Source: Sarcophilus harrisii (Eukaryota). Taken from it: a stretch of DNA of 64,000 nucleotides. The notes under the pieces are model-generated. The model did not search any database. It saw only the letters and a list, made by a program, of their open reading frames with translations, and was not told where the DNA came from. Shown in pieces: positions 2,729 to 56,512 of this stretch (the stretch's first letter is position 1; each line of letters starts with the position of its first letter). The stretch spans positions 125,747,754 through 125,811,753 of the forward strand of contig CM109174.1 in the NCBI GenBank assembly GCA_048593225.1, written 5' to 3'. Position numbers and translations under genes: made by a program.

Positions 2729-3058
<330 letters not shown>

Positions 3059-9059: not shown

Positions 9060-9420
9060 CGTTTGTGTTTGCTCAGATCCTTACCTCTAAAATGAAGGGG
9101 GTTTTAGTTTAGCTTATGTAAGGTTCCTTCCAATTTTTCTCACTCTGATCCGAAGCCTAACCCTCTAAAGTGACAACTTTAAACCCCGACGAATAAGCCA
9201 TTTTGCTTTATTCACAGAAGCAACAAAATTACCTGACCGTGCCTCGTTTTCGTTCACTGATTGTCAGTAGCTTTCCCCGTACTGATTATCTTCAGTTTAT
9301 CCCGCATGATGTCGTTTGTATACAATCTGCTGTCTCCCCTATCAGTGAGTTCTCAGGGGCTTCATCGGTCGGTGGGCCAGGCACTTGGTTCAGAGCTTGA
9401 TATACATAATAATGCTTCCT
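9060..9420. mobile_element. MIR-like fragments in KIF22 intron 1
   Basis: The MIR core 'cctctaaaatgaagggg' and the 3' region 'gcacttggttcagagcttgatatacataataatgc' are both present. Confidence 0.4.
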
Positions 9421-9835
9421 AACCGACCAGTACCTGCTGCTGCTTTGGGTACTTTCTCCCCCTCGGCCTCATTCCCAATTCCTTCATCTCGCTTCCTTTT
9501 TGGGGGGAAGGGGAGATATAAAGATCCCTCCCTTTGGGTTTCTGGGCAATGGAGAGGATCCGCCCCCCATTTCTCCTGCCTCCTGCTCCTCTCCCATCCC
9601 AGCAACTCCAAACCTTGACCCTTACTCCTCCTTAGCTCGGGGGAAAGGATCCGGGGACGCCGGAAGGAGCGCGCACCGCGCCTGCGCCTGCCCAGCGGGA
9701 CTGACCCCACCTTCCCATCCCCCATCCCGCCAGCTCACCCGCCTGGGAAACTGCAAAGAAATAACCTCGAGAGGCAAACCCCTGCTGAGATAAGGATGGT
9801 CATCCTTGTGCCGCAGCTGCCCCGAGCGTCCCTAC

Positions 9836-9872
9836 CTGCAGCAGCAGCAGCAGCAGCAGCCGCTACCGCCAT
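9836..9872 (-). CDS. KIF22: KIF22 exon 1, coding part (M-A-V-A9 then a split Gly codon); 5'UTR extends upstream (higher coordinates) into the CpG island
   Basis: The minus-strand ATG at 9872-9870 is the first in-frame ATG. The encoded 'EMAVAAAAAAAAAG' aligns to human KIF22 'EMAAASAAAISGAG'. A CAG|gtaggg donor ends the exon at 9836 in phase 1. The exon lies inside a CpG island. Confidence 0.5.
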
Positions 9873-10002
9873 CTCCCAGGGTTTCTGCTCCGACGTCCCA
9901 GCCGCCACGACCGCCCCCCCCACCCAACTTCTCTTCCAGAGATGGTCCCTCCCGGTGTTCGAATTCCCCGGCGGCTCCGCCTCCTCCGGTCCTTTCGACC
10001 AA

Positions 10003-10007
10003 TGGCG
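10003..10007 (+). promoter_or_regulatory. CCAAT box (candidate NF-Y site) about 130 nt upstream of the KIF22 ATG
   Basis: The literal 'gaccaatgg' lies inside the CpG island. Confidence 0.25.
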
Positions 10008-10489
10008 AGCGCCATACTGGTTGTGGCACCGGAAGGGGTGGAGCCACTCCGGCCACCTCCCAGCTGAGACGTATTCGGCTTGTCAAACGTTCCGGTATTG
10101 GTAAAGAAGCGCTCTTCCGCCCTTCGAGTCCCGGGGCCCTTTCAGACATCCTCCGGGGGACCCCTGAAGATGCCGGACCGCTGGAGCTGGCCCTGCTGTC
10201 CGCTCCTGACGCTTAAACTTCCGGCACCCGGGCCGGCTCCGGCCCAGACGCTCCTGTGGACATCGCTGCAGATCTCCCGGCTGTTATCTCCGTGTAGCGG
10301 CTGACTCTCGGGTCCGCTTACCCAGTCGCGACCTCCAGCTGCGTGTCCCGTGAACGCCTCATTTTCGGCAATTCCAAAGCAGGACTCCTCTTTCCCTCCC
10401 CCTCCTGTCCCTCCCTCTCTTCCAAACGCCCCCAGCAAAGTCGCAAGCGTTAACGTCCATCCTCCCAGTCCCCCAGGCTCAAAGCCCGC

Positions 10490-10540
10490 GGGTCCTCCCG
10501 GACTTCTTCCCCCCGCCCCGCCCCGCCCCGCCCCCCCGGC
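10490..10540 (+). promoter_or_regulatory. Tandem GC boxes (Sp1-like, on the opposite strand)
   Basis: The tract reads (ccccg)4-5, 'ccccccgccccgccccgccccgccccccc'. Confidence 0.3.
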
Positions 10541-11773
10541 CGGTCACTTGCCAAATCCTGCGGTTTCTGCCTTTGTAACTTAGCATCTCCTCTGCGCGGC
10601 CCCTCCTCTCTTTGGGCTCTGCCACCCCCGTGGAGTCCACCCTGAGCTGCTCACGCCTAGACTTTTGCAGTGCCCTTGCTGTCTGGTCTGCCTGCCTCGG
10701 GTCTCTCCTTACTTCTCTCCATCCTCCACGCATCTTTCAAAGTGCAAGTCTGGCTATGTCGTCATGCCCGGAGACTTCCTGTTACCCCCAGTGTCAAATA
10801 TAAAACACTCGGGCATTCCAAAGCCCTTCAAAAGCTGCCTTTCCCCTACCTTATCAGTCTTATTATACCTTACTGTTTCCCCCTTCCTTTCCTTACTCAA
10901 AATGACGTGGGCCTCTTTTCTGTTCCTCCCTAGGACTCTCCATCTCCTGACTCCACGCATTTTTATTGGTTGTCTCTTCCCCTAGCCTGGGATCCTCTCC
11001 ATGGTCTCCACCCCCTGGCTTCCTTCAAGTCCCACCTTCTGCAAGAAGCCATTCCTCCATCCTTCTTGTGGCTAGTGTCTGCCCTCTCTTAATTACCTCC
11101 AATTGATTCTGCCTTTATCTTATCGATACCTAGTTGCAATGCCTGCATAAGCACTTAGTAAATTACAACAACCAATAATAACGATACCCAAGATTTATAT
11201 ATCATTGTAAGGTTCGTAAAGCACTTGACAAATATCTCTTTTTATCTTCACAACAATCCTGGGAGATAAAGTGCTATTGTTATCACCCCCATTTTACACA
11301 TAAGAAAACCGAGGCAGAGGTTAAATGACTTGTTAGTAAGTGATAAACTAGCAAGTGATTAAGGCTTGATTTGAGTTTAGGTATTCCTAACTCCAGAGCT
11401 CTATTCACTACCCCCTTCTATTTCTGTCTAATTCTGGGTAAAATTGTGATTTTTAGATAGTAGTGCAAACGTGCAAGATAGGATACAGGTGAAGAGACAA
11501 TCCTGTACTAACTTTCTTCATTATTTTTTTCTTTTTTTAAACTTATTTAGTATTTTATTTTCCCTCAGTTACATATAAAAATATTTTTAACATTCTTTTT
11601 TTTTTTTAAATTTTGAATTCCAAATTCTCTACCTTTCTTCCTCTCAACCTCCCTTCACTGAGAAGTCAAGTACTTCTATATAGGTTATACACATGTAGTC
11701 ATTTGAAATATTTCCATAATAATCATGTAAAAAAAAATCTTAAGAAAAATAACATTTAAAAAGTGTGTTTCAA

Positions 11774-11921
11774 GGGGGCAGCTAGATGGTGCAGTGTAGA
11801 GCACCAGCCTTGAAGTCAGGAGGATCTGAGTTCAACTCTGACCTCAGACACTTAACACATTCTAGCTGTGTGACCCTGGGCAAATCACTTAACCCCAATT
11901 GCCTCAGCCAAAAAAAAAAAA
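11774..11921 (+). mobile_element. tRNA-derived SINE with A-tail
   Basis: The sequence reads 'gggggcagctagatggtgcagtgtagagcaccagccttgaagtcaggaggatctgagttcaactctgacctcagacacttaacacattctagctgtgtgaccctgggcaaatcacttaaccccaattgcctcagcc(a)13'. Confidence 0.9.
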
Positions 11922-11924
11922 AGT

Positions 11925-12790
11925 ATGCTTTGATATGCATTCAGACTCTATCAGTTCTTTCTCTGGAAATGGATAGTATGTTTTATCATAAGTCCTTCAG
12001 AATTGTCTTGCATCATTGTATTGCTGAGAAGAGCTGTCATCTACAACTAATCATCTTACAATATTGCTGTTACTGTTATTTTGTATATCATATATTTAAC
12101 TTTGCTTCAGCTCATATAGGTCTTTCCAGATTTTTTAGAACATCCTACTCATTTTTTTAATAGCACAATAGTATTTCACAATAACAGCGCAATTTGTTCA
12201 ACTATTCCCCAATTGATGGGCATCCCCTCAATTTTCAATTATTTGACACCAGAAAAGAGTTGCTATAAATATTTTTGTAATATAGATCTTTTCCTTTTAA
12301 AAATAATTTTTAATCTCCTTTTGGTATACAGATCTAATATTAGCCAATATAATTATTAGCCAATCTAATAATACTTAAGAATTTATTTAATTTGCATTTC
12401 TCCAATCAATAGTGAGAGTATTATTTCACATAGATAGCTTTGATGACAAAGTTCTCAGGAGTTACAAGTATCATCTTACCCTGTAGCAATGTTAACAGAT
12501 TAATCTTCTTAAATCCCAGATAATTTCTTTTTCCTGTTTGCCTTTTATGTTTCTCTTGAATCTTGTATTTGAAAGTCAAATTTTCTATTCAGCTCTGGTC
12601 TTTTCATCAATAATACTTTAAAGTCCTCTATTTCACTGAATACCCATTTTTTTCCCCTAGAAAGATTATAATCAGTTTTTTCTGGGTAAGCTTCTTGGTT
12701 GTAATCCTAGCTTCTTTGCCCTTTGGAATTTCATATTCTAAGGCCTCCAATTCTTTAACGTAGAAACTGCTAAATCTTGTATTATGGTAT
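11925..12790 (-). mobile_element. L1 ORF2 3' fragments
   Basis: Minus-sense L1 ORF2 C-terminal motifs are present ('...ccccaattgatgggcatcccctcaatt', 'ctgctaaatcttgt'). Related pieces recur at 14100-14480 and 15720-16270. Confidence 0.55.
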
Positions 12791-13202
12791 GGTATTGTAT
12801 ATTGTATTGCAGGCAGCCAGAAAGATGGCAGATAATTTATACCATTCCACTTTTCTCTTTCCCTTTCTCCCAGCATATTCTTCTCTTACCATTTAATTTC
12901 ATCTTTTTTTTTTTTTTTTTAAGATATTATCCCTTCATATTCAACACCAGGAGGGAACTGTTTCCTTTACTAAGCTGTATTTCTTTTTGATCTGTGATCT
13001 CGATCAGATTCTCAGCCCCTTCTGGGGAAGGCATATCCTCCCTAGACAAGTTATCTTTCCAGGATGCCAGAACCTTCGATTCAATTAGAAATCCTAGTCA
13101 AAAAGTACCCCTTTGAAGTGTGACAACCTAATCCATATATTTAGTATTTTTGCCCCAGTTCAAATAATTTCTTTTCATTTGTTTTAAAATTTTTTAGTTC
13201 TG

Positions 13203-13283
13203 AGGGCAGCTAGGTGGTACAGTGGATAGAGTACCAGGAGGTGCTCTCCTGAAGTCAGGAGGACCCGAGTTCAAATCTGGTCT
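13203..13283 (+). mobile_element. SINE 5' half, interrupted by the insertion at 13284
   Basis: The sequence is 'agggcagctaggtggtacagtggatagagtaccagg...gttcaaatctggtct'. Confidence 0.8.
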
Positions 13284-13827
13284 TGATGAGGTTTAGATTT
13301 CGGGTACCCAAATGAAATTAGGGTTTCTGGTGGTCAGAGAGTTAAATAAGGTCGAAATGAGGTCTAGTTACAGCGCAAGGGTAGGGAGTTCTGGGATTCC
13401 CTTCTGGGGTGCAAAAACCTAGATTGATAAAAGAGGTTTATTATGGGGATTGGAAGTAAGATTAAAGTCTAGTTAATAAAAGGTGTTAGGTAAAGAGAAG
13501 CAGGCATAGGAAACAGTATTCCAGTGGTCAGAGACTCTTGGGGTTGGAACCACTGCAAAGAAAGAGTTTTAGTTTGGCTCCTTTATAATAGGGGGTTATG
13601 GCTACAAGCTGAAGGGGGCTCATGGATGGAGTCCCAGGTTGGCTTCAGCTGGCTTTCAGCTGAAGGATTAGAATTTGAATTGAATTCAGTGGGTTTCTGG
13701 ACCGAGCCGATCCTACCCAGATAATAAAGATGAAACTGTTTGTGCTTGGGTTGGAGTCCCCTCACTGAGGCAGAGTTGAAGGAGGTTTTCTCCTTTAAGG
13801 AGTTTCAGTTTTGGGGTTCCCTCTTCA
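13284..13827 (+). mobile_element. Putative solo LTR (544 bp) inserted in a SINE
   Basis: It starts TG and ends CA and is flanked by a 4-bp TSD 'gtct' (13280-13283 and 13828-13831). It carries an internal TATA-like 'tataat' at about 13584 and AATAAA at 13723-13728. It splits an otherwise contiguous SINE. Confidence 0.45.
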
Positions 13828-13891
13828 GTCTCACACACTTGACGCTTCCTAGCTGTGTGACTCTGGGCAAATCACTTAACCCTAACTGCCT

Positions 13892-13925
<34 letters not shown>
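13828..13925 (+). mobile_element. SINE 3' half with (A)30 tail
   Basis: The sequence is 'gtctcacacacttgacgcttcctagctgtgtgactctgggcaaatcacttaaccctaactgcctcagc(a)30'. Confidence 0.8.
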
Positions 13926-13928
<3 letters not shown>

Positions 13929-14099
13929 TTCTTGGTTTTCTTCCTTTTCCTCACCCAAATTAAGAAAACTTGTGAAGTTATGCAAAATATTTCCATAAAA
14001 GTCATAGTGTGGAAAAAAAATAGATCTCCCATCCTAGTGAAAATAAAAACCTTCAAGAAAAATTAAGTTAAAAAAAAAGAGAGAGAGATGAGAGAAAGA

Positions 14100-14480
14100 G
14101 AGAATACTTCAATCTGTATTCAGCCATAATCAATTAATCAATTTCTTCTCTGGGAATGGGTAGGATTTTTCAATATAAATCCTTCACAATATTCATGGAT
14201 GATTGCACTGCTGAAAATGGCAGTCATTCACAGTTGGTTATCCCCAACTTATAGGTGGTATCCCCTATTACTTTGAAAACAGTACATTTCACTTTGCTTG
14301 AGTTCATGGAGGACTTTCCAGTTTTTTTTTTTCTGAGAGCATCTTCCTCATTATTTCCCATAGAATAATAATATTCTATCATAAACATATATCACAGCTT
14401 ATTGAACCATTTCCCAATTGATGGGCATCCCCTCAATTTCAATTTTTTTTTGCCCTGAGAAATGAGTTGCTATGAATATT
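14100..14480 (-). mobile_element. L1 3' fragment
   Basis: It is similar to 11925-12300 ('...ccatttcccaattgatgggcatcccctcaatttcaa'). Confidence 0.5.
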
Positions 14481-43059: not shown

Positions 43060-45520
43060 TATTATAGTAATTTTTTATTGACAGAATCCATGCCAGGGTA
43101 ATTTTTTTTGCAACATTATCCCTTGTACTCACTTCTGTTCTGATTTTTCCCTCCCACCCTCCACCCCCTCCCCTAGATGGCAAGCAGTCCTATATATGTT
43201 GAATATGTCCTAGTATATCCTAGATACAATGTATGTGTGCAGATCCAAACAGTTTTCTTGTTGCACAGGGAGAATTGGATTCAGAAGGTAGAAATAACCC
43301 GGGAAGAAAAACAAAAATGCAAACAGTTTACATTCATTTCCCAGTGTTTTTTTTCTTTGGGTGTAGCTGCTTCTGTCCATCATTGATCAATTGAAACTGA
43401 ATTAGGTCTCTTTGTCAAAGAAATCCACTTCCATCAGATTACATCTTCATACAGTATCGTTGTTGACATATATAATGATCTCTTGGTTCTGCTCATTTCA
43501 CTTAGCATCAGTTCATGTAATTCTCTCCAAGCTTCTCTGTATTCATCTTGCTGGTCGTTTCTTACAGAACAATAATATTCCATAACATTCATATACCACA
43601 ATTTACCCAACCATTCTCCAATTGATGGGCATCCATTCAGTTTCCAGCTTCTAGCCACTACAAACAGGGCTGCCACAAACATTTTGGCACATACTGGTCC
43701 CTTTCCCTTCTTTAGTATCTCCTTGGGGATAAGCCCAGTAGAAACACTGCTGGATCAAAGGGTATGCACAGTTTGATAACTTTTTGGGCATAATTCCAGA
43801 TTGCTCTCCAGAATGGTTGGATTCGTTCACAGCTCCACCAACAATGTACCAGTGTCCCAGTTTTCCCACATCCCCTCTAACACTCATCATTATTTTTTCC
43901 TGTCATCTTAGCCAATCTGACAGGTGTGTAGTGGTATCTCAGAGTTGTCTTAATTTGCATTTCTCTGATTAATAATGATTTGGAACTCTTTCATATGAGT
44001 GGTAATGATTTCAATTTCATCATCTGAAAATTGTCTGTTCATATCCTTTGACCATTTATCAACTGGAGAATGACTTGGTTTCTTATAAATTAGAGTCAGC
44101 TCTCTATATATTTTGGAAATGAGGCCTTTATCAGAACCTTTAACTGTGAAGATGTTTTCCCAGTTTGTTGCTTCCCTTCTAATCTTGTTTACATTAGTTT
44201 TGTTTGTACAGAAGCTTTTTAATTTGATGTAATCAAAATTTTCTATTTTGTGATCAATAATGGTCTCTAGTTCGTCTTTAGTCACAAATTTCTTCCTCTT
44301 CCACAAGTCTGAGAGATAAACTATCCTATGTTCCTCCAATTTGTTTATAATCTCGTTCTTTATGTCTAAATCATGGACCCATTTTGATCTTATCTTGGTA
44401 TACGGTGTTAAGTGTGGGTCCATGCCTAATTTCTGCCATACTAATTTCCAGTTATCCCAGCAGTTTTTGTCAAATAATGAATTCTTATCCCAAAAGTGAG
44501 GATCTTTGGGTTTGTCAAACACTAAATTGCTATAGTTGACTTTTCTGTCTTGTGAACCTAACCTGTTCCACTGATCAACTAATCTATTTCTTAGCCAATA
44601 CCAAATGGTTTTGGTGACTGCTGCTTTATAATATAGTTTTAGATCAGGTACAGCTAGGCCACCTTCATTTGATTTTTTTTTTCATTAATTTTTTTGAGAT
44701 TCTTGACCTTTTATTATTCCATATGAATTTTGTTGTTATTTTTTCTAGATCATTAAAATATTTTCTTGGAAGTCTGATTGGTATAGCACTAAATAAATAG
44801 ATTAGTTTAGGGAGTATTGTCATCTTTATTATATTTGCTCGACCTATCCAGGAGCACTTGATATTTTTCCAATTGTTTAAGTCTGACTTTTATTTGTGTG
44901 GAAAGTTTTTTGTAATTTAGCTCATAGAATTCCTGACTTTCCTTTGGTAGATAGATTCCCAAATATTTTATGCTGTCGACAGTTATTCTGAATGGAATTT
45001 CTCTTTGTATCTCTTGCTGTTGGATTTTGTTGGTGATGTATAAAAATGCTGAGGATTTATGGGGATTTATTTTATAACCTGCAACTTTGCTAAAGTTATA
45101 GATTATTTCTAATAGCTTTTTCGTAGAATCTCTAGGGTTCTCTAAGTATACCATCATATCATCTGCAAAGAGTGATAGTTTGGTTTCCTCACTGCCTGTT
45201 CTGATTCCTTTAATCTCTTTCTCAACTCTTATTGCCGAGGCTAGTGTTTCTAATACAATATTGAATAATAATGGTGACAGTGGGCAACCTTGCTTCACTC
45301 CAGATCTTACTGGGAAAGATTCCAGTTTTTCCCCATTGCATATGATGCTTACTGATGGTTTTAAATATATGCTCCTGACTATTTTAAGAAAAAGTCCATT
45401 TATTCCTATACTCTCAAGTGTTTTTATTAGGAATGGATGTTGGATTTTATCAAATGCTTTTTCTGCATCTATTGAGATGATCATATGGTTTTTGTTATTT
45501 TGCTTATTGATGTAGTCAAT
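43060..45520 (-). mobile_element. L1, 5'-truncated about 2.5 kb, with long residual ORF2 reading frames (RT domain with FADD motif)
   Basis: Track ORF 44807..45484(-) is 225 aa ('...[14 protein letters not shown]...[13 protein letters not shown]...') and 43950..44522(-) is 190 aa of ORF2 C-terminus. There is a T-rich tail at 43040-43065. Confidence 0.85.
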
Positions 45521-45529
45521 CCTTTATGA

Positions 45530-46879: not shown

Positions 46880-47077
46880 TTTCCATAGAAACACCTGGGA
46901 GGAAGAGGGTGGCAGGGGCAGTTGAGTCACAGTTGCTTAACTGCCTGCCCCAAATGGGCCCTGTTTATACCCTTCTGGGAATCCCACCCTATTCAGTGCC
47001 CTCCCAGGATGCACTGAAGCGATCATCCCTCAAATTGGATGAGAACAGAAACTGCTGGACTATCTGAAGAGACCAAG
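46880..47077 (+). promoter_or_regulatory. C16orf54: Candidate C16orf54 promoter and non-coding exon 1
   Basis: This is a unique, moderately GC-rich block. An AP-1 consensus TGAGTCA lies at 46923-46929. A 'tttata' lies at 46964-46969. A good donor 'accaag|gtgagaag' ends the candidate exon at 47077. Confidence 0.25.
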
Positions 47078-47099
47078 GTGAGAAGCATGAGTAAGAAAG

Positions 47100-47136
47100 A
47101 GAGCTGGGGGGTATAGAAATAAAGAACTAGAGATTC

Positions 47137-47173
<37 letters not shown>

Positions 47174-47900
47174 CAGAGATGGAGAGAGACACACACACGG
47201 AGACAAAGACAGAGACAGAAAGAGGGCAAAGTGGGGGAGACATTCAGACAGACAGATAGCGAGAGAGTTTGGAAGATGGTAAATCAGAGAGAAACAGGCC
47301 TGGGGAAACAGAAAGACCTGGAAGCATAGAAATGGGGACAGAGAGACAGAGGAACTCAACGAGACACACAGAAAGAGACTGATTAAGACCTCAAGAGATA
47401 TGGAGATAGGAAGAAAAAGAGGGAGAAAGAACTTGGGATGGAGAGAAAAAGAGGTAGAGAAAGAGATAACGAAACCTAGAGAAAGGCAACTAGGTCATCT
47501 GAGCACGACAGTAAAAACTCAGAGAAACAAAAGCAGAGGTACAGAGATTGGAAATCAGACTTAAAAAACCAATCTTTGCTCCAGAAAGACAGACTTAGAG
47601 AAAGACTAGGGGAAAAAAGACAAGGGAATAAATTTAGAGAGATAATGAGAAAGAGAGAGAGACCCCAAAGCAACCAGGAAAAAAACAACAAAAAACAAAA
47701 ACAAGAAAAGCAGCAGGAAAAAGGAGCAGGAACTACTGTAAGTAATGGGAAGAACAAGAGTGACTGGGCCCCTGGGGTGGAAGGATATTTCTGTCCTTTG
47801 CTCCCCCGCCATTTCCTCTTAAGCAAAATGGAGGGGGAGAGACTCCCTGGGGGAGAAGACTCCAGCTGGCTCTTTAAATGCCAGGGCTAGGGACATCTCA
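47100..47900 (+). repeat. Purine-rich (GA)n/(CAGA)n low-complexity block
   Basis: It contains (ga)9 at 47136-47152 and (caga)5 at 47153-47172, followed by A/G-rich sequence out to about 47900. Confidence 0.7.
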
Positions 47901-47929
47901 GTTCTGCAATAGAAGTGGAGCCCCAGATA

Positions 47930-48145
47930 CTGAAGAATTTTCTTTCTCTCTCATTCTCTCTGTCCCTGTATTTCTCCCCTTTCTCCCACCTTTTCCATTT
48001 TCCCCATTCTCCCTTTCTCCCCCCTCTTTTCTGGCTCTGTTCATGCGTCTGCAATAGACTCCTTTTCCCTCGTTTTCTTTCCGTTCCTTTTTTCCTCTCT
48101 GTTTTTCTCTCCCATCTTGGTCCTTCCATTTCCCTCTCCCACTCC
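47930..48145 (+). repeat. Polypyrimidine (CT-rich) tract running into the C16orf54 ATG
   Basis: The stretch is more than 90% C/T. Confidence 0.7.
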
Positions 48146-48165
48146 CAGATGTCTGCAGCTCTGGA
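47972..48165 (+). repeat. Left arm of a perfect 194-bp inverted repeat (C16orf54 exon-2 acceptor, ATG and codons 1-5)
   Basis: Base-by-base comparison shows it is identical to the reverse complement of 51127-51320. Confidence 0.9.
48100..48148 (+). promoter_or_regulatory. C16orf54: 3' splice acceptor (polypyrimidine tract plus cag) immediately 5' of the C16orf54 ATG, implying an upstream non-coding exon
   Basis: The sequence is 'tctctcccatcttggtccttccatttccctctcccactcccag|ATG'. Confidence 0.45.
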
Positions 48166-48823
48166 ACAGCCTCCTGAGGATCCAGGCCTGCCCCAATCCT
48201 CCCCATGGCCCCCCCTCCTGTGCGGACCCTGCATCCCCATCATGCTGGGCCTGGCCTTGGTGGCCGCCATCTTCCTCCTGGCCACAGCTGTGCTGGCCGA
48301 GCGTCTTTACCGCCGTTCTCTGGAATCAGACCCTAGAGTCCAGGGGCCCAGCCTGGTCTGGCGCCCAGGAGGGGAGCTGTGGATTGAGCCTGTGGGGACA
48401 CCCCACGAACGATCCGAGGATTGGTATGGTTCAACAGCCCCTCTTCTGCACTCCCAGGCTCCTGAGCCCCCAATTCTTGGGGGCACTTTGGAAATGCGGG
48501 CCACAGCACCCCCCCTTCCAGATTCTTCTCTCTGTCCTTTAGTTTCCCCCCAGGCCCCCGAGTCTCCTGGCAGCACGTTCTGCACAGCAAACCCTTGGGA
48601 AGAAAGGCCTCGGACCACTGGTCTGGTGGGCTGGTTTGAACCCCAGCCAGGGCCAGAACCCTCACCCCCCCCACTTTATAGCATCCGAAGGCCTGGGAGC
48701 CCTGAGCCTGACTGGAGCCTTCAGCCACGGGTGACCCTGGAGCAGATCTCAGCTTTTTGGAGAAGAGAGAGCAGGGTACATGGAGGTAAAACTGAGGTTT
48801 TACCCAGGTTAAGCTTCCCATAG
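48149..48823 (+). CDS. C16orf54: C16orf54 orthologue (single-pass transmembrane protein, 224 aa), uninterrupted CDS
   Basis: The ATG is at 48149. The translation 'MSAALEQPPEDPGLPQSSPWPPLLCGPCIPIMLGLALVAAIFLLATAVLAERLYRRSLESDPRVQGPSLVWRPGGELWIEPVGTPHERSEDWYGS...LQPRVTLEQISAFWRRESR' matches human C16orf54 as recalled ('CGPCIPIMLVLATLAALFILTTAVLAERLFRR...LVWRPGGELWIEPMGTARERSEDWYGS...LQPRVTLEQISAFWKREGR'). Gene order next to ZG16 is syntenic. The longer track ORF starting at 47915 is a non-ATG artefact. Confidence 0.8.
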   Translation: MSAALEQPPEDPGLPQSSPWPPLLCGPCIPIMLGLALVAAIFLLATAVLAERLYRRSLESDPRVQGPSLVWRPGGELWIEPVGTPHERSEDWYGSTAPLLHSQAPEPPILGGTLEMRATAPPLPDSSLCPLVSPQAPESPGSTFCTANPWEERPRTTGLVGWFEPQPGPEPSPPPLYSIRRPGSPEPDWSLQPRVTLEQISAFWRRESRVHGGKTEVLPRLSFP

Positions 48824-49297
48824 AGAACTTCCTCCATATTGAAGGCCTAGGGGAAGGTGGGCTTCCTGAGGGTCACGAGACATTGGGGCCTATGGACACA
48901 GGACCCTGTTCCTCACCTTTGGATCCTGGACTATCCTCAGAGAAGAGAGGTAGGATCCGGAAGGGACCCGCAAGGACAGAATGCTGAGCACTTTAAAAAA
49001 AAATCAAGACTCTTTTCTTCTGGACTCTGGAGGTCAGACTGGACGGGGATGAAGCGGTCACTCCTGCAGAGCCAAATGGATCCCTAGCTCACCCTGTGAT
49101 AAGGTGCCATCTCTCTTTAGAATGGCCTAACGGAGGTGGGGCAAATGGGGATGTTAGTATAACCGTAAAGTCACCCGAGCAAGAACATCAGGGGTGTGAA
49201 ATGGAGGAAATGAACAATTCTCTTTCCCACCCTTCAGCTGCTCTCAGTCTCCCACCTGCTGTTCCCTCCCGAGCTCCCAATCCCCTCACCTGTGGCA

Positions 49298-49303
49298 AAT
49301 AAA
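49298..49303 (+). terminator. C16orf54: C16orf54 polyadenylation signal AATAAA
   Basis: The literal 'ggcaaataaacctgc' lies about 475 nt after the stop, and no AATAAA occurs earlier. Confidence 0.5.
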
Positions 49304-49329
49304 CCTGCTTCCAAGCTCTTAACTCCTGT

Positions 49330-49620
49330 AGACAAAAACAATTTTATCTTTATAACTTGTAAATATGCATACAAGTATATATATATAATTTAATTATATA
49401 TGTATAACTTGCATATATGTATAAAGTACATATACATATAGTAAATATGCATACAAGTATAAATACATATCACATATATGTATACAAGTATATATGCTTA
49501 TATACATATATTCAAGTATATATATAACTTGTATATATGTATACATAATATGTATATGTGCTATATGTAACTTGTATGTGTGTTTATATATATATATATA
49601 CACACAAGTATATGTGGATA
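49330..49620. repeat. TA/CA-rich degenerate minisatellite (about 20-25-bp unit, 'acaagtatatatgtatac...')
   Basis: The same motif recurs visibly, for example 'taaatatgcatacaagtatatatatat...tatatgtatacaagtatatatgc...'. Confidence 0.7.
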
Positions 49621-50254
49621 CTTGTCTGTGTCCCTCTATGACAGAAGACAAATGCTCTGTTGCAGTTCTTAGGGCTGGAAGGGACTGCTTCATGTCCACC
49701 CCTTTGGTTTCATAGATGAATTAATTGCAGCCTGAGGGCGAGGGAATTTCTTTAGTTTACATGACCAGCTTGCATCAGGCCCCCGGTCTCCTAACTTCTG
49801 CATCCGACATCCTTCCACCCCATCTTCATGAGGGAGAGATGAAGGAAGGCCTGTACAAGCTAAGATCAAGGTGGAGTTCCATGGGAAGGTGGAGCCTGAG
49901 AAGGCTAGTTCAGGAAATGGTGGTTGGAATTCCAAGCTGAGGGACCCTTCCAGAGAGGACTTTCTTTCTTGGGGGAACAGGCAAGTGGAGATGATAAGGC
50001 ATCTGATCTGGTCTTGGAGGAAGGGAAGGCTTTCAACCTTTGGAAGTGTGGAGGGACTTTTGGGCAAAAGTGTTCTGTATTCTAAAGGGAAATTAAAGTA
50101 GAAAGGAGATTTCTTCAATTTGGCAAAATACTTACTCATTGCCTACTATGTATGTAATGTGCTGTGTATTGGGGTCAGTACATAAATAAGATGTGTGTAA
50201 TTTGTATCCAAATAGCTTACAATCTAATAGAAGGGATTCAATCTCAAAAAACGA

Positions 50255-50460
50255 TGATAGTTGGTTGTCAGTCATGTATGACTCTTCATGACCCCATTTG
50301 GGGTTTTCTTAGCAAAGATCCTGGAAGGGTTGGCCATTTCCTTCTCCGGCTCATTTGACTGATGAGGAAACTGAGGCAGACAGGATTACATGACTTGCCC
50401 AGGATCACACAGATGGTAAGTGTCTGAGCCTGGATTTGAACTCATGAAGATGAGCCTTCA
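50255..50460 (-). mobile_element. SINE (MIR-core form)
   Basis: It contains 'gtcatgtatgactcttcatgaccccatttggggttttcttagcaaagatcctggaagggttggccatttccttctccggctcatttgactgatgaggaaactgaggcagacagg...'. Confidence 0.75.
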
Positions 50461-51126
50461 AATTACAGAATAATTAAGTCAGTAGGTGTACTCAGAGCAC
50501 CAGAAAAATTCTAGGAGTGAATTCTGCCTGGGGGGAATCAAAAAGGTTGGGGGGCATCTGATCTGGCCTTGGAGGAAGGGAAGGGTTTCGACCTTTGGAA
50601 GTGTGGAGGGACTTTGGTCAAATGCCTAGAAATGGGAGAGGGGTTGGGGAGTGCAGCCAGAGTACAGGATGGGTAAGTCGAGTCAAGTCAGTAAGCGTAT
50701 GATGATACCGTATATCATTGTGTGGTAACCTGTTTATGACTATATTTCAGATCCATCACATGGGGGAGGGGGTGTTAATTATTTACTGATTAGACAGTGG
50801 GCTGGATGTGATATGACTGTCAAGTTATTCTGGTGCAGAAGGGAAACCATAGAGGCCTTAGAGGAGCTCCTCCATGCCTTGACGGTTCAGGGAGTGACCA
50901 CAGGCCAGATCGGTGGAGAGCTCATTCGGACTGGTCAGTGGGACCCAGGATGTTTCACCCTCAGGGTCCAGCGCAGACCCCACACTGGAGTTATGTTTAT
51001 CTTCATAGGTTAGCATTTATTGAGCACCTATTATGTGCAGGATCTAGCATTAGCACTCTGAGGAATGCAGGAGATGTCCTTGGCAATGGTCCTTGTCCTC
51101 CCCCTCCAAGGAGACTGGACTCAGCC

Positions 51127-51320
51127 TCCAGAGCTGCAGACATCTGGGAGTGGGAGAGGGAAATGGAAGGACCAAGATGGGAGAGAAAAACAGAGAGGAA
51201 AAAAGGAACGGAAAGAAAACGAGGGAAAAGGAGTCTATTGCAGACGCATGAACAGAGCCAGAAAAGAGGGGGGAGAAAGGGAGAATGGGGAAAATGGAAA
51301 AGGTGGGAGAAAGGGGAGAA
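51127..51320 (-). repeat. Right arm of the 194-bp inverted repeat
   Basis: The reverse complement reads 'ttctcccctttctcccacct...cccagatgtctgcagctctgga', which equals 47972-48165 exactly. Confidence 0.9.
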
Positions 51321-53389
51321 CAATCCTCAGTTGTTAATGATCTTTAGAACTATTTTGCATGTACTTTTTATTTGCTTCTCTAACTGAGTAGTAAGCAGGC
51401 TATAATTACATCTAGATTTTAAAAATCCTCAAATTTTTAATATTTAATCTCACATATATATTGTGGGCAGGAGTCATTTTAGTATATTTTTTGTATTACT
51501 AATGTCTAGAACAATATCTTGCATGAAATAATTTCTGTGTAAATTCAATTAATTGTATAATTATTATTTATTAACTAATTTTTACTAAGTTGATTATTGC
51601 ATATGAAAATTAAATTTAAATGTATATAGTTAAAATGATATATTTAGTAGATTTTTTCCCTTAAAATAATGGATGACAATCAAAAAAGAAAGCAGCTTAT
51701 GTATCTACCATTGAAGTAAAGAAGAAAGACTAGTCAAGGTCAAAGAGTTCCTGAAACAAGGCCACACAGAAGTGCCCAAAACAAAAAGGTTTGGTGTGGA
51801 AGAGTGGAAAGAGCCCCAGACTGAGGGGCAGGTTTCAAATGCCATCTCTGCTACTTGCTAGCTGTTTGGCTCTGGGTAAATCACATAAGCTTTCTGAGCC
51901 TCAGTTACCTTATCTATTAAATGGGGTTATCTTTATTACTTCTCTCACAGAGTTGTTTTAAGGAGATCAAAATGCTAATTGTTATTAGGATGAAGACTTC
52001 GGATAAGGCATTTGCTCATTCTGGAATTCAGTTTCCCACAGAAAATTCAGGCATTGAAGATCCTCATTTCCCATTACTCCCTCCAAGTTCCTCGTGTTCT
52101 CACCAAACTCTGTTCCCAAATGTACTCCATGGTTTCCAGGTTCTGAGGGAAAAGGCTCTGCAGACCTTGCCCATGATACCTGAAATGTCCTCTCTCCCCC
52201 TCTTTGAAGAATTCTGACCTCTCTTTGAATCCCAAGTCAAACGGCACCAACCTTCCCTGATTTCCCTTCAGTCAGTCACAAAGATCTCTTTTCCTAAGCA
52301 CTTAAGTGTTATTGTATATTATTCAATTTAATGAACATTTGTCAAGTGTCTATACATGCTCAGAGCATTAGAGATACAGAAGCAAAAATGAAAAAAATAA
52401 TCCATGTCCTCAAGGGCTTAAATTCTATTTTAGTGACCACAGACACACAAGTACACATTAGATAATTTGATCCCTTACTGTTGACTTCAGAGAAGGCCTC
52501 ATGGAGGAGCCTGAGCCTTGAATGAAGACGGATTTAGAGTCGGAGCTGAAAAGAAAGTGAATGGATGGTGTGGAATGCTGAGGTCAAAAAACAGCTCCTA
52601 GTCCAGCTTAGCCGGAATTTTGTGGGCACAAATCCCTGGGAAGGGAAAAGGAACAAACATGAATAAGAGCTTGCTTTGTATCAGACCCTGTGCTCCTGCT
52701 TTACTAGCAGATTATCTCATTTGATTCTCACAACAAATTCTCACAACAACCTTGGGAGAGAGATGCTATTATTATATACATTTTACAATTGAGGAAACCG
52801 CCAAGTAGCAATTAATGCTAAGTAATGAAAGTGAAACCACTGAAGGTTTCTGAGAAGAATCAAACATTACCCAAATTAATCGAATACTTTTCCATTGTGA
52901 CGCTCCTCTGAATTCTCAGAGTTTACCACAAGGACACTGTCTAATGTGCTGAATGTCTTCCTTACATTTAGGCTCTTAAGAGAAGGTCAGATTTTAAGAT
53001 TATTTTGGCAGCTGTGGGGAGGATTTGCTGGAGGGGAGAATTTGGGAGCGGAGATGCCAGTTAGAAAAATGGTATAATGGTGAAGACAAAAGGCCACAAG
53101 GGCCTAAACTAAGTGGTACCTGTGTAAATGGAAAGATGAAAACAGATTGAGATATGGGAAACTACAACCAATAAGAGTGGTCAATAGTTTGATTATGGGA
53201 AATTGAAGGAGTGAGAAAAACCAGGGATGATTCAGAGGCTGAGAATCTGGGTGATTGGTTTCCTTAACTGTAATACGGAACTTAGGAGAAAAGGCATTTT
53301 TAGGGGGAAAGATAGTGAGTTCTGCTTTGGACAATTTGAGATACTAATGGAATATCCAAGTAGTTTTAGATAACTATTCATCATTTTAA

Positions 53390-56424: not shown

Positions 56425-56512
56425 TTCCTTCCTTCCTTCCTTCCTTCCTTCCTTCCTTCCTTCCTTCCTTCCTTCCTTCCTTCCTTCCTTCCTTCCTTCC
56501 TTCCTTCCTTCC
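56425..56512. repeat. (TTCC)22 perfect microsatellite
   Basis: The tetranucleotide tandem run is visible directly. Confidence 0.95.

Follow-up and report, generated by a model that had tools for sequence, protein, structure and literature searches.

The window analysed here, i.e., the whole 64-kb stretch of DNA from the devil, Sarcophilus harrisii, contains the gene C16orf54 (Table 1). The product of its coding sequence matches PF15755/DUF4689 over residues 1-213 in a Pfam search (E=5.5e-107) and is 100% identical to S. harrisii C16orf54 (XP_031819615/XP_031819629), confirming the preliminary description of this DNA, which had recognised a marsupial C16orf54. The pyrimidine fraction of intron 1 is 0.19-0.33 across 47101-47800 and 0.70-0.85 across 47901-48200. 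The intron ends with the acceptor AG at 48147-48148, followed by the ATG at 48149. This acceptor is backed by NCBI isoform X1, for which 13 residues are encoded upstream, at 47039-47077, with a GT donor at 47078 directly after this coding part. A literature search on C16orf54 returned no mention of a marsupial structure or of a 194-bp repeat.

Table 1. Features of the C16orf54 locus and of the neighbouring insertion (positions in the window)
Feature	Position	Strand	Remark
C16orf54 isoform X1 exon 1, coding part (MRTETAGLSEETK)	47039..47077	+	Translation equals the first 13 residues of XP_031819615.1
Intron 1	47078..48148	+	~800 nt polypurine-rich, then ~250 nt polypyrimidine tract, acceptor AG at the end
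Left arm, ancestral source copy	47972..48165	+	Collinear with Antechinus and wombat over both arm edges
C16orf54 CDS, exon 2, DUF4689	48149..48823	+	224 aa and stop
Spacer (CDS remainder, 3′ UTR, downstream DNA)	48166..51126	+	Orientation as in the outgroups
Candidate poly(A) signal AATAAA	49298..49303	+	475 nt past the stop codon; kept in Antechinus
Candidate poly(A) signal ATTAAA	50092..50097	+	Kept in Antechinus and wombat
46-codon ORF from the duplicated ATG (MSAALE and 40 new codons)	51003..51143	-	By-product of the copy
Devil-lineage composite insertion, 620 bp	51124..51743	.	Replaces 13 nt of the Antechinus empty site (CATGTGGAAAAAC)
Orphan bases GCC, left junction	51124..51126	.	Unlike both the source and the Antechinus target
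Right arm, derived inverted copy of 47972-48165	51127..51320	-	Shares the devil-derived substitutions of the left arm
Filler X, 423 bp, 76% A+T	51321..51743	.	No clear match in the window or the Antechinus locus

The two arms of the table are exact reverse complements of one another (194 nt, 100% identical) separated by 2,961 nt, and the perfect inverted repeat reported earlier was reproduced in its coordinates, length and identity. All four arm edges are sharp, the adjoining 12-20 nt being without similarity. The left arm comprises the final 177 nt of intron 1 and the initial 17 nt of exon 2, which read ATG TCT GCA GCT CTG GA (ATG and five codons), and all the elements that had been ascribed to it, namely the polypyrimidine tract, the acceptor, the ATG and MSAAL, are present. 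Despite an arm pyrimidine content of 83%, a chance origin of the repeat is ruled out, because, when the whole window is compared with itself, no pair other than the arms matches over 40 bp or more with an identity of 95% or higher. Identity is 73-89% among the remaining repeats of at least 100 bp and 93% for one pair of 71 bp. The window is otherwise repeat-rich and includes an L1 reverse-transcriptase fragment at 44810-45523.

The preliminary description had proposed a comparison with other marsupial assemblies, which revealed that the 620-bp block is missing from both Antechinus and wombat. In Antechinus flavipes (L002), positions 10147-14226 align to 47129-51123 of the window in plus orientation with 90.8% identity; the alignment stops at 51123 and restarts at 51744, the two ends being joined by a 13-nt bridge as against 620 bp in the devil. 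The same site is empty in the wombat (L003), where the bridging sequence is related to that of Antechinus. The empty site is thus intact in both outgroups, with 13-15 nt of bridging sequence, and each outgroup has one arm copy, in the left position. The right arm is one part of a larger composite insertion, which had gone unnoticed in the earlier account. From these alignments, the insertion appears to have arisen on the devil lineage, and it may be devil-specific or common to Dasyurini. The wombat blocks are collinear with the devil spacer and both devil assemblies display the ancestral spacer orientation; collinearity with the two outgroups indicates that the spacer is not inverted in the devil. 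An inversion with staggered-break inverted duplications was rejected, since the spacer lies in plus orientation relative to Antechinus and wombat.

At the insertion site, approximately 13 ancestral bases are replaced and the target reads GGACTCA/CATGTGG. The signature of transposition is not seen at the 620-bp block. A search for a target-site duplication gave a 5-mer as the best flank alignment, a score equalled by 72% of shuffles, and neither end of the block carries a poly(A) or A-tract. The two ends, AGACTGGACTCAG and AGACTAGTCAAG, look vaguely alike by eye, but a target-site duplication was dismissed because their alignment is no better than that of shuffles. No terminal microhomology was found at the junction 51126/51127. 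A weak inverted microhomology existed beforehand between the inner flank of the source and the target (CAGCCTCCT--GAGG versus CAGTCTCCTTGGAGG; reached by 80 out of 5000 shuffles), but this 13/15 inverted match sits 9 nt inside the junction and not at its end. An 8-mer, CAGCCTCC, is common to 48167 and 51122. Simple priming from the CTCAG or CAGCCTCC microhomology was rejected, as the junction that it predicts differs from the observed sequence.

Regarding the filler X, sensitive BLAST searches of the window (~64 kb of devil DNA) and of the Antechinus locus (~22 kb) returned only AT-rich noise, scanning the JGI metagenomes for its exact 21-mers gave no match, and Rfam yielded no family, only sub-threshold low-complexity matches. 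No internal repeat structure or terminal repeats were found within X. Hence a donor is known for the 194 bp (47972-48165, 100%), and none was found for the 423 bp of X in the window, the Antechinus locus or the JGI metagenomes. Judging by sequence identity, a templated origin can be regarded as demonstrated for one of the two insert pieces, the 194-bp copy.

The right arm carries 8 out of 8 left-arm substitutions that the wombat polarises as devil-derived, with zero differences between the arms since. Zero differences in 2 x 194 bp correspond to a 95% bound of ~2.6 Myr at the dasyurid substitution rate quoted in PMC11128018, assuming no inter-arm gene conversion. The event would consequently be younger than ~2.6 Myr unless gene conversion acted. 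The earlier suggestion of a very recent duplication is therefore borne out by the presence of all eight devil-derived substitutions in an arm that lies within a block missing from both outgroups. Gene conversion of an old copy, put forward as another origin of the perfect identity, is excluded because the ancestral site is empty; its only possible role could be to have kept the arms identical after insertion.

The best explanation, to which we assign a probability of about 70%, is a templated patch acquired on the devil lineage by break repair or template switching, as a single structural mutation. A break or a stalled replication fork would have arisen ~2.3 kb beyond the stop codon of C16orf54, and its repair would have filled in 620 bp of copied DNA, at the cost of ~13 ancestral bases. 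The patch would have been assembled from three orphan bases, an inverted 194-bp copy of the intron-1/exon-2 boundary taken from 2.96 kb upstream, and 423 bp copied from a source outside the window. We infer that the repair proceeded by end joining or template switching (templated filler DNA; class-2 templated insertion or MMBIR/FoSTeS type).

Several known systems resemble this patch in part. Polymerase-theta end joining produces snap-back or in-trans templated insertions, in which the filler is often an inverted copy of nearby sequence. The devil patch likewise consists of templated filler from nearby, in inverted orientation, plus a few non-templated bases; however, polymerase-theta insertions typically span a few to tens of bases, and the 194 and 423 bp seen here are far longer. 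In Drosophila, staggered-break inversions leave short perfect inverted duplicates flanking a unique segment, and such duplicates also bracket a unique segment in the devil, but this segment is not inverted relative to Antechinus and wombat, and the right arm is joined to 423 bp of foreign DNA. Class-2 templated sequence insertions arise when copied DNA or RNA is used to patch a double-strand break (Onozawa & Aplan, PMC5110952), with a microdeletion, non-templated bases and the lack of both a target-site duplication and poly(A) as hallmarks (PMC5110952). The 620-bp block displays the same combination, with an empty ancestral site, no target-site duplication or poly(A), 13 nt replaced and the orphan triplet GCC, and is similarly an insert of a few hundred bp, of which the 194-bp part is demonstrably copied from elsewhere. 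It differs in that the donors of the class are distant and often RNA, while the donor of the 194 bp is 2.96 kb away on the same chromosome and is copied in inverted orientation. In addition, the devil patch is a chimera of two donors, and its template may be DNA or unspliced pre-mRNA. FoSTeS/MMBIR (Hastings et al. 2009, PMC2621351) and short-range template switching (PMC7954356) generate complex multi-segment insertions in which a nearby segment is inverted, as in the devil, creating an inverted repeat where none existed. However, with microhomology of at least 2 nt exactly at each switch junction taken as the criterion for MMBIR/FoSTeS, clean terminal microhomology was not found in the devil, as judged at the junction 51126/51127, and MMBIR rearrangements usually extend over kilobases to megabases. 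Short-range template switches, for their part, are usually below 100 bp and rejoin the original template nearby.

The preliminary description had raised an assembly artefact, in which the animal would have a single arm and the right arm would stem from misassembly, a chimeric read or gap filling. Perfect identity and razor-sharp edges are what such an artefact would yield. This alternative is nevertheless very unlikely, since the assembly mSarHar1.11 (L001) contains the identical inverted repeat and the same structure even though 17 sites or indels set it apart from the window across 21.8 kb. We infer that the two assembly texts derive from independent read sets, given these sequence differences and a published mention that another animal was the source of a second devil assembly. 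The 224-aa and 255-aa products were also looked up as exact proteins in search of a third devil assembly or read-derived contigs, without a match, and no devil read-derived proteins were among the matches to the C16orf54 ORF. The layout is also unlike fold-back or scaffolding errors: fold-back chimeras are adjacent palindromes, whereas the copy lies 2.96 kb away and is joined to 423 bp of unrelated DNA. Furthermore, the block sits between orthologous flanks in the correct order, the window is free of N runs, and the 64 kb hold no second high-identity self-duplicate. An older date for the same insertion, with arms homogenised by repeated gene conversion and an identity that is uninformative on age, is unlikely, although less so than an artefact. 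Inverted repeats are known to undergo gene conversion, and there is a loose resemblance between AGACTAGTCAAGG, at the right end of the block, and AGACTGGACTCAG, the left target flank, which would imply age if it were a decayed target-site duplication. However, this resemblance is not significant, repeats usually have to be as long as these 194-bp arms, or longer, for homologous exchange to be efficient in mammals, and the empty Antechinus site caps the age at the split of the devil and Antechinus lineages.

Transposition is improbable as well, the probability falling between those of an artefact and of an older insertion. Either the arms would be the terminal inverted repeats bounding a DNA transposon of 3.3 kb, or the block would be a retrocopy or chimera that L1 activity made from an unspliced C16orf54 transcript. 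Transposition would fit a repeat-rich window that holds an L1 reverse-transcriptase fragment, an arm made of unspliced intron plus exon, like a pre-mRNA, and an AT-rich X for which no source was found in the window or the Antechinus locus. Against it, the left arm and the entire spacer are ancestral and collinear in Antechinus and wombat, and the 3.3-kb unit therefore never moved as one element. A DNA transposon with terminal inverted repeats was rejected, as only the right arm and X are new and the arms have no flanking direct repeat (CCCTGTAT on the left, CAATCCTC on the right). An L1 retrocopy or class-1 templated insertion was assessed by whether the insertion site reads TTTT/A, whether a poly(A) tail is present and whether 5 bp or more of the target are duplicated; it was rejected on the target sequence given above and on the lack of an A-tail and a target-site duplication, a small target deletion being found instead. 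Moreover, X has no second copy in ~64 kb of devil and ~22 kb of Antechinus DNA. An RNA lariat as template, with the outer arm edge as the branch point, was likewise discarded: the AG at ~48057 makes a branch point well within the arm likely and, on inspection, 47966-47971 are not branch-point-like. The least probable alternative is that the repeat is a functional element regulating C16orf54, whether through an RNA hairpin over the 3′ splice site and start codon, through an antisense acceptor or ORF, or as an exon-flipping recombination switch. In its favour, the minimum-energy fold predicted for a single transcript spanning both arms pairs 193 out of 194 arm positions (duplex of -409 kcal/mol), and the copy has a full polypyrimidine tract, an AG and an ATG opening a 46-codon ORF. 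This minus-strand frame, which had been said to run past MSAALE into about 40 new codons, is indeed present from 51143 down to 51003, but it has no Pfam match. An RNA hairpin would further require transcription beyond both candidate poly(A) signals (49298 and 50092), which precede the right arm by 1-1.8 kb and are conserved in Antechinus. In addition, the insertion is missing from the other marsupials compared (Antechinus and wombat), the orientation is ancestral in both devil assemblies, and a repeat so young looks perfect without selection.

For a repair patch of this kind, the duplicated acceptor and ATG would most likely be inert passengers and the insertion would be neutral, and the analysis offers no sign that it alters the working of C16orf54. 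Cruciform extrusion is implausible across a 2.96-kb spacer, while inversion between the arms is possible in principle, and the C16orf54 coding exon could on rare occasions be inverted by way of the repeat. It is highly doubtful that the only coding exon of this immune-cell membrane protein gene was enclosed in an accidental flip cassette or hairpin that altered C16orf54 expression specifically in devils. If it did, recombination between the arms of a flip cassette would invert the exon, and exon 1 would splice to MSAALE and 40 nonsense codons, a knock-out; with a hairpin, read-through RNA would form a 194-bp dsRNA masking the 3′ splice site and start codon and attracting editing or silencing. 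What was suspected to be an assembly error thus becomes, on the favoured reading, a real and young repair scar. The locus provides a worked example in which comparison with two outgroups directly shows how old a perfect inverted repeat is, which of its arms is derived and how it is built, and the insertion could be used as a presence/absence marker in dasyurid phylogeny or devil population genetics.

Positions 47972-48165 are the exact reverse complement of 51127-51320 (194 nt, 100% identity), and 2,961 nt separate the two copies. The perfect inverted repeat of the preliminary description was thus re-found base for base at the same coordinates. Identity breaks off sharply at all four edges, where the adjoining 12-20 bases are unrelated. 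The arm is rich in pyrimidine (83%), and low complexity was therefore weighed as an explanation. Self-comparison of the whole 64 kb returned no second match of at least 95% identity over at least 40 bp; the remaining self-repeats of at least 100 bp range from 73% to ~89% identity, and a single 71-bp pair reaches 93%. The repeat is well past chance expectation, and the window contains no runs of N. The second-best self-match near C16orf54 is a direct repeat in the spacer, 49998-50068 / 50553-50622 (~63-71 nt, 93-95% identity, 555 bp apart).

Translation from 48149 gives a 224-aa protein that matches Pfam DUF4689 end to end (PF15755, E=5.5e-107) and is 100% identical to the Sarcophilus harrisii 'transmembrane protein C16orf54 homolog'. 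The NCBI isoform X1 has 13 extra N-terminal residues, which map to 47039-47077 and are followed by a GT donor, placing intron 1 at 47078-48148 and making the AG at 48147-48148 the used acceptor. Hence, the left arm comprises the final 177 nt of intron 1 and the initial 17 nt of exon 2 (the ATG and five codons), which fits the earlier claim that it spans this boundary. The minus-strand frame said to run past MSAALE into ~40 new codons was also found: the duplicated ATG (51143, minus strand) begins a 46-codon ORF made of MSAALE and 40 new codons, with no family match in Pfam. Intron 1 (47100-48150) is strongly strand-asymmetric, with ~800 nt of purine-rich sequence (pyrimidine fraction 0.19-0.33, GA/GACA repeats) followed by a polypyrimidine tract of ~250 nt reaching the acceptor. 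The duplicated arm was copied from this tract, which is of unusual length and liable to form triplexes.

Comparison with other marsupials, proposed in the preliminary description, found the right arm absent and the site empty in both Antechinus and wombat. The Antechinus flavipes locus aligns in plus orientation to 47129-51123 at 90.8% and picks up again at 51744, leaving only 13 nt (CATGTGGAAAAAC) in place of the 620 bp of the devil; the wombat has the same empty site with related bridging sequence. Each outgroup carries one arm copy, in the left position, and both are collinear with the devil across the two left-arm edges. The left arm and spacer are therefore ancestral, the spacer has not been inverted, and the right arm belongs to a derived insertion of three components. 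No donor of its 423-bp segment X was found in the window, the Antechinus locus, JGI metagenomes or Rfam, and X has no internal repeat structure.

Features of the C16orf54 locus and of the devil-lineage insertion (window positions)
Feature	Position	Strand	Remarks
Candidate poly(A) signal AATAAA	49298		After stop codon; conserved in Antechinus
Candidate poly(A) signal ATTAAA	50092		After stop codon; conserved in Antechinus and wombat
Devil-lineage insertion, 620 bp	51124-51743		Absent from Antechinus and wombat
Orphan bases GCC, 3 nt	Left end of insertion		First component of insertion
Inverted arm copy, 194 bp	51127-51320	minus	Second component of insertion
Segment X, 423 bp	51321-51743		Third component of insertion; 76% A+T

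Between Antechinus and the devil left arm there are 16 differences, which, when polarised with the wombat, are 8 devil-derived, 4 Antechinus-derived and 4 ambiguous. The right arm has the devil state at 16/16, and no arm-versus-arm difference has arisen since copying. Hence, the duplication was rightly called very recent. With the dasyurid rate of 5.95e-9 per site per generation and 2-year generations (PMC11128018), ~1.15 differences per Myr are expected over 2 x 194 bp, so that zero differences give a 95% upper bound of ~2.6 Myr. A rough calculation from the substitution counts dates the event to approximately the most recent sixth of the interval after the Antechinus split. The date could be older if gene conversion has since acted between the arms; the empty Antechinus site is an age ceiling regardless of gene conversion.

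The suggestion that the repeat is an assembly artefact is unlikely to be correct. The corresponding locus of mSarHar1.11 (GCA_902635505.1, chromosome LR735554.1), retrieved by exact-protein look-up, aligns to 37037-58839 at 99.84% identity and contains the same perfect 194-bp inverted repeat, the 47-52 kb region being identical, although the two texts differ nearby. Sixteen small differences (substitutions and 1-2-bp indels) all lie within 1.8 kb (43110-44927), overlapping L1-derived ORFs at 43953-45523 (RVT_1 match 44810-45523), and could reflect a haplotype difference or a repeat-driven polishing error. The other ~20 kb aligned are identical except for a TTCC microsatellite (56425-56440), which is four units (16 bp) longer in the window. 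A second devil assembly from another animal has been noted (PMC11128018), and the window probably belongs to an assembly other than mSarHar1.11, whose read set may be independent. Moreover, source and copy are 2.96 kb apart, and the copy is joined to unrelated DNA between correctly ordered flanks, a layout that fold-back chimeric reads or misoriented contigs do not produce.

Among mechanisms for a genuine repeat, a DNA transposon whose terminal repeats are the two arms is ruled out, since the right arm alone is new. The collinearity of the spacer with the outgroups likewise rules out inversion by staggered breaks. Class-2 templated sequence insertions are patches put in at double-strand breaks by end joining, with published criteria of no target-site duplication (TSD), no poly(A), loss of target bases and untemplated junction bases, whereas class-1 events, mediated by L1, are marked by a TSD, poly(A) and a TTTT/A site (PMC5110952). 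The devil block matches class 2 in these respects and lacks the TSD and poly(A) of class 1: no TSD was found at the insertion (a by-eye likeness was equalled by 72% of shuffles) and no poly(A) at either end of the block, while ~13 ancestral bases were replaced and three left-junction bases are untemplated. Template switching in several steps, as in MMBIR/FoSTeS (PMC2621351), is possible, and the template may have been either DNA or unspliced pre-mRNA. The inner flank of the source and the target share a pre-existing inverted similarity (CAGCCTCCT--GAGG / CAGTCTCCTTGGAGG; 80/5000 shuffles as good), and the 8-mer CAGCCTCC, found in direct orientation at 48167-48174 and 51122-51129, may be a trace of template switching or a coincidence; neither gives a clean primer-template junction. 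The first 8-mer copy lies one base inside the inner edge of the left arm and the second straddles that of the right arm. The source of the copy is located in the long polypurine-then-polypyrimidine tract. Such tracts adopt unusual DNA structures and stall forks, and a replication or repair accident would be in keeping with one at the source. The repeat is real and young and its mechanism ordinary: it is most probably a new case of a known kind of repair-generated templated insertion, which by chance duplicated a splice acceptor and start codon.

With both candidate poly(A) signals 1-1.8 kb ahead of the right arm, the two arms are not expected together in the mature mRNA. In a hypothetical read-through transcript containing both, the predicted minimum-energy fold would pair 193 of the 194 arm positions (duplex of -409 kcal/mol). 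With a spacer of 3 kb, duplex DNA is not expected to extrude a cruciform. An arm of 194 bp is close to the minimum length for homologous exchange in mammals, and inversion between the arms would therefore be rare; if it happened, the coding exon would be cut off from exon 1. Both devil assemblies have the ancestral orientation, and sequence analysis of the locus found no evidence for a function of the repeat.

Devil C16orf54 also has a lineage-specific 10-residue C-terminal extension, ending ...GGKTEVLPRLSFP (48780-48823) and identical in both assembly texts, where Antechinus, koala, Dromiciops and Gracilinanus end in ...GGP and elephant in ...VGF at the same position; the ancestral TGA stop was removed by a 4-bp deletion (CCCC) and a 1-bp indel. 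Directly after the first AATAAA lies an AT-rich, TA/CA-type imperfect palindromic microsatellite block (49350-49620), where sub-threshold Rfam matches to mir-297/mir-1277 were rejected as low-complexity noise. Elsewhere in the window, a kinesin motor-domain exon on the minus strand (2729-3058; PF00225, E=6.5e-26) probably belongs to KIF22, given the synteny of 16p11.2. At ~9.4-10.5 kb (9400-10500), long ORFs on both strands have many Gly, Pro, Ala and Arg codons; this codon content suggests a GC-rich, CpG-island-like region, which is possibly the promoter of the kinesin gene.
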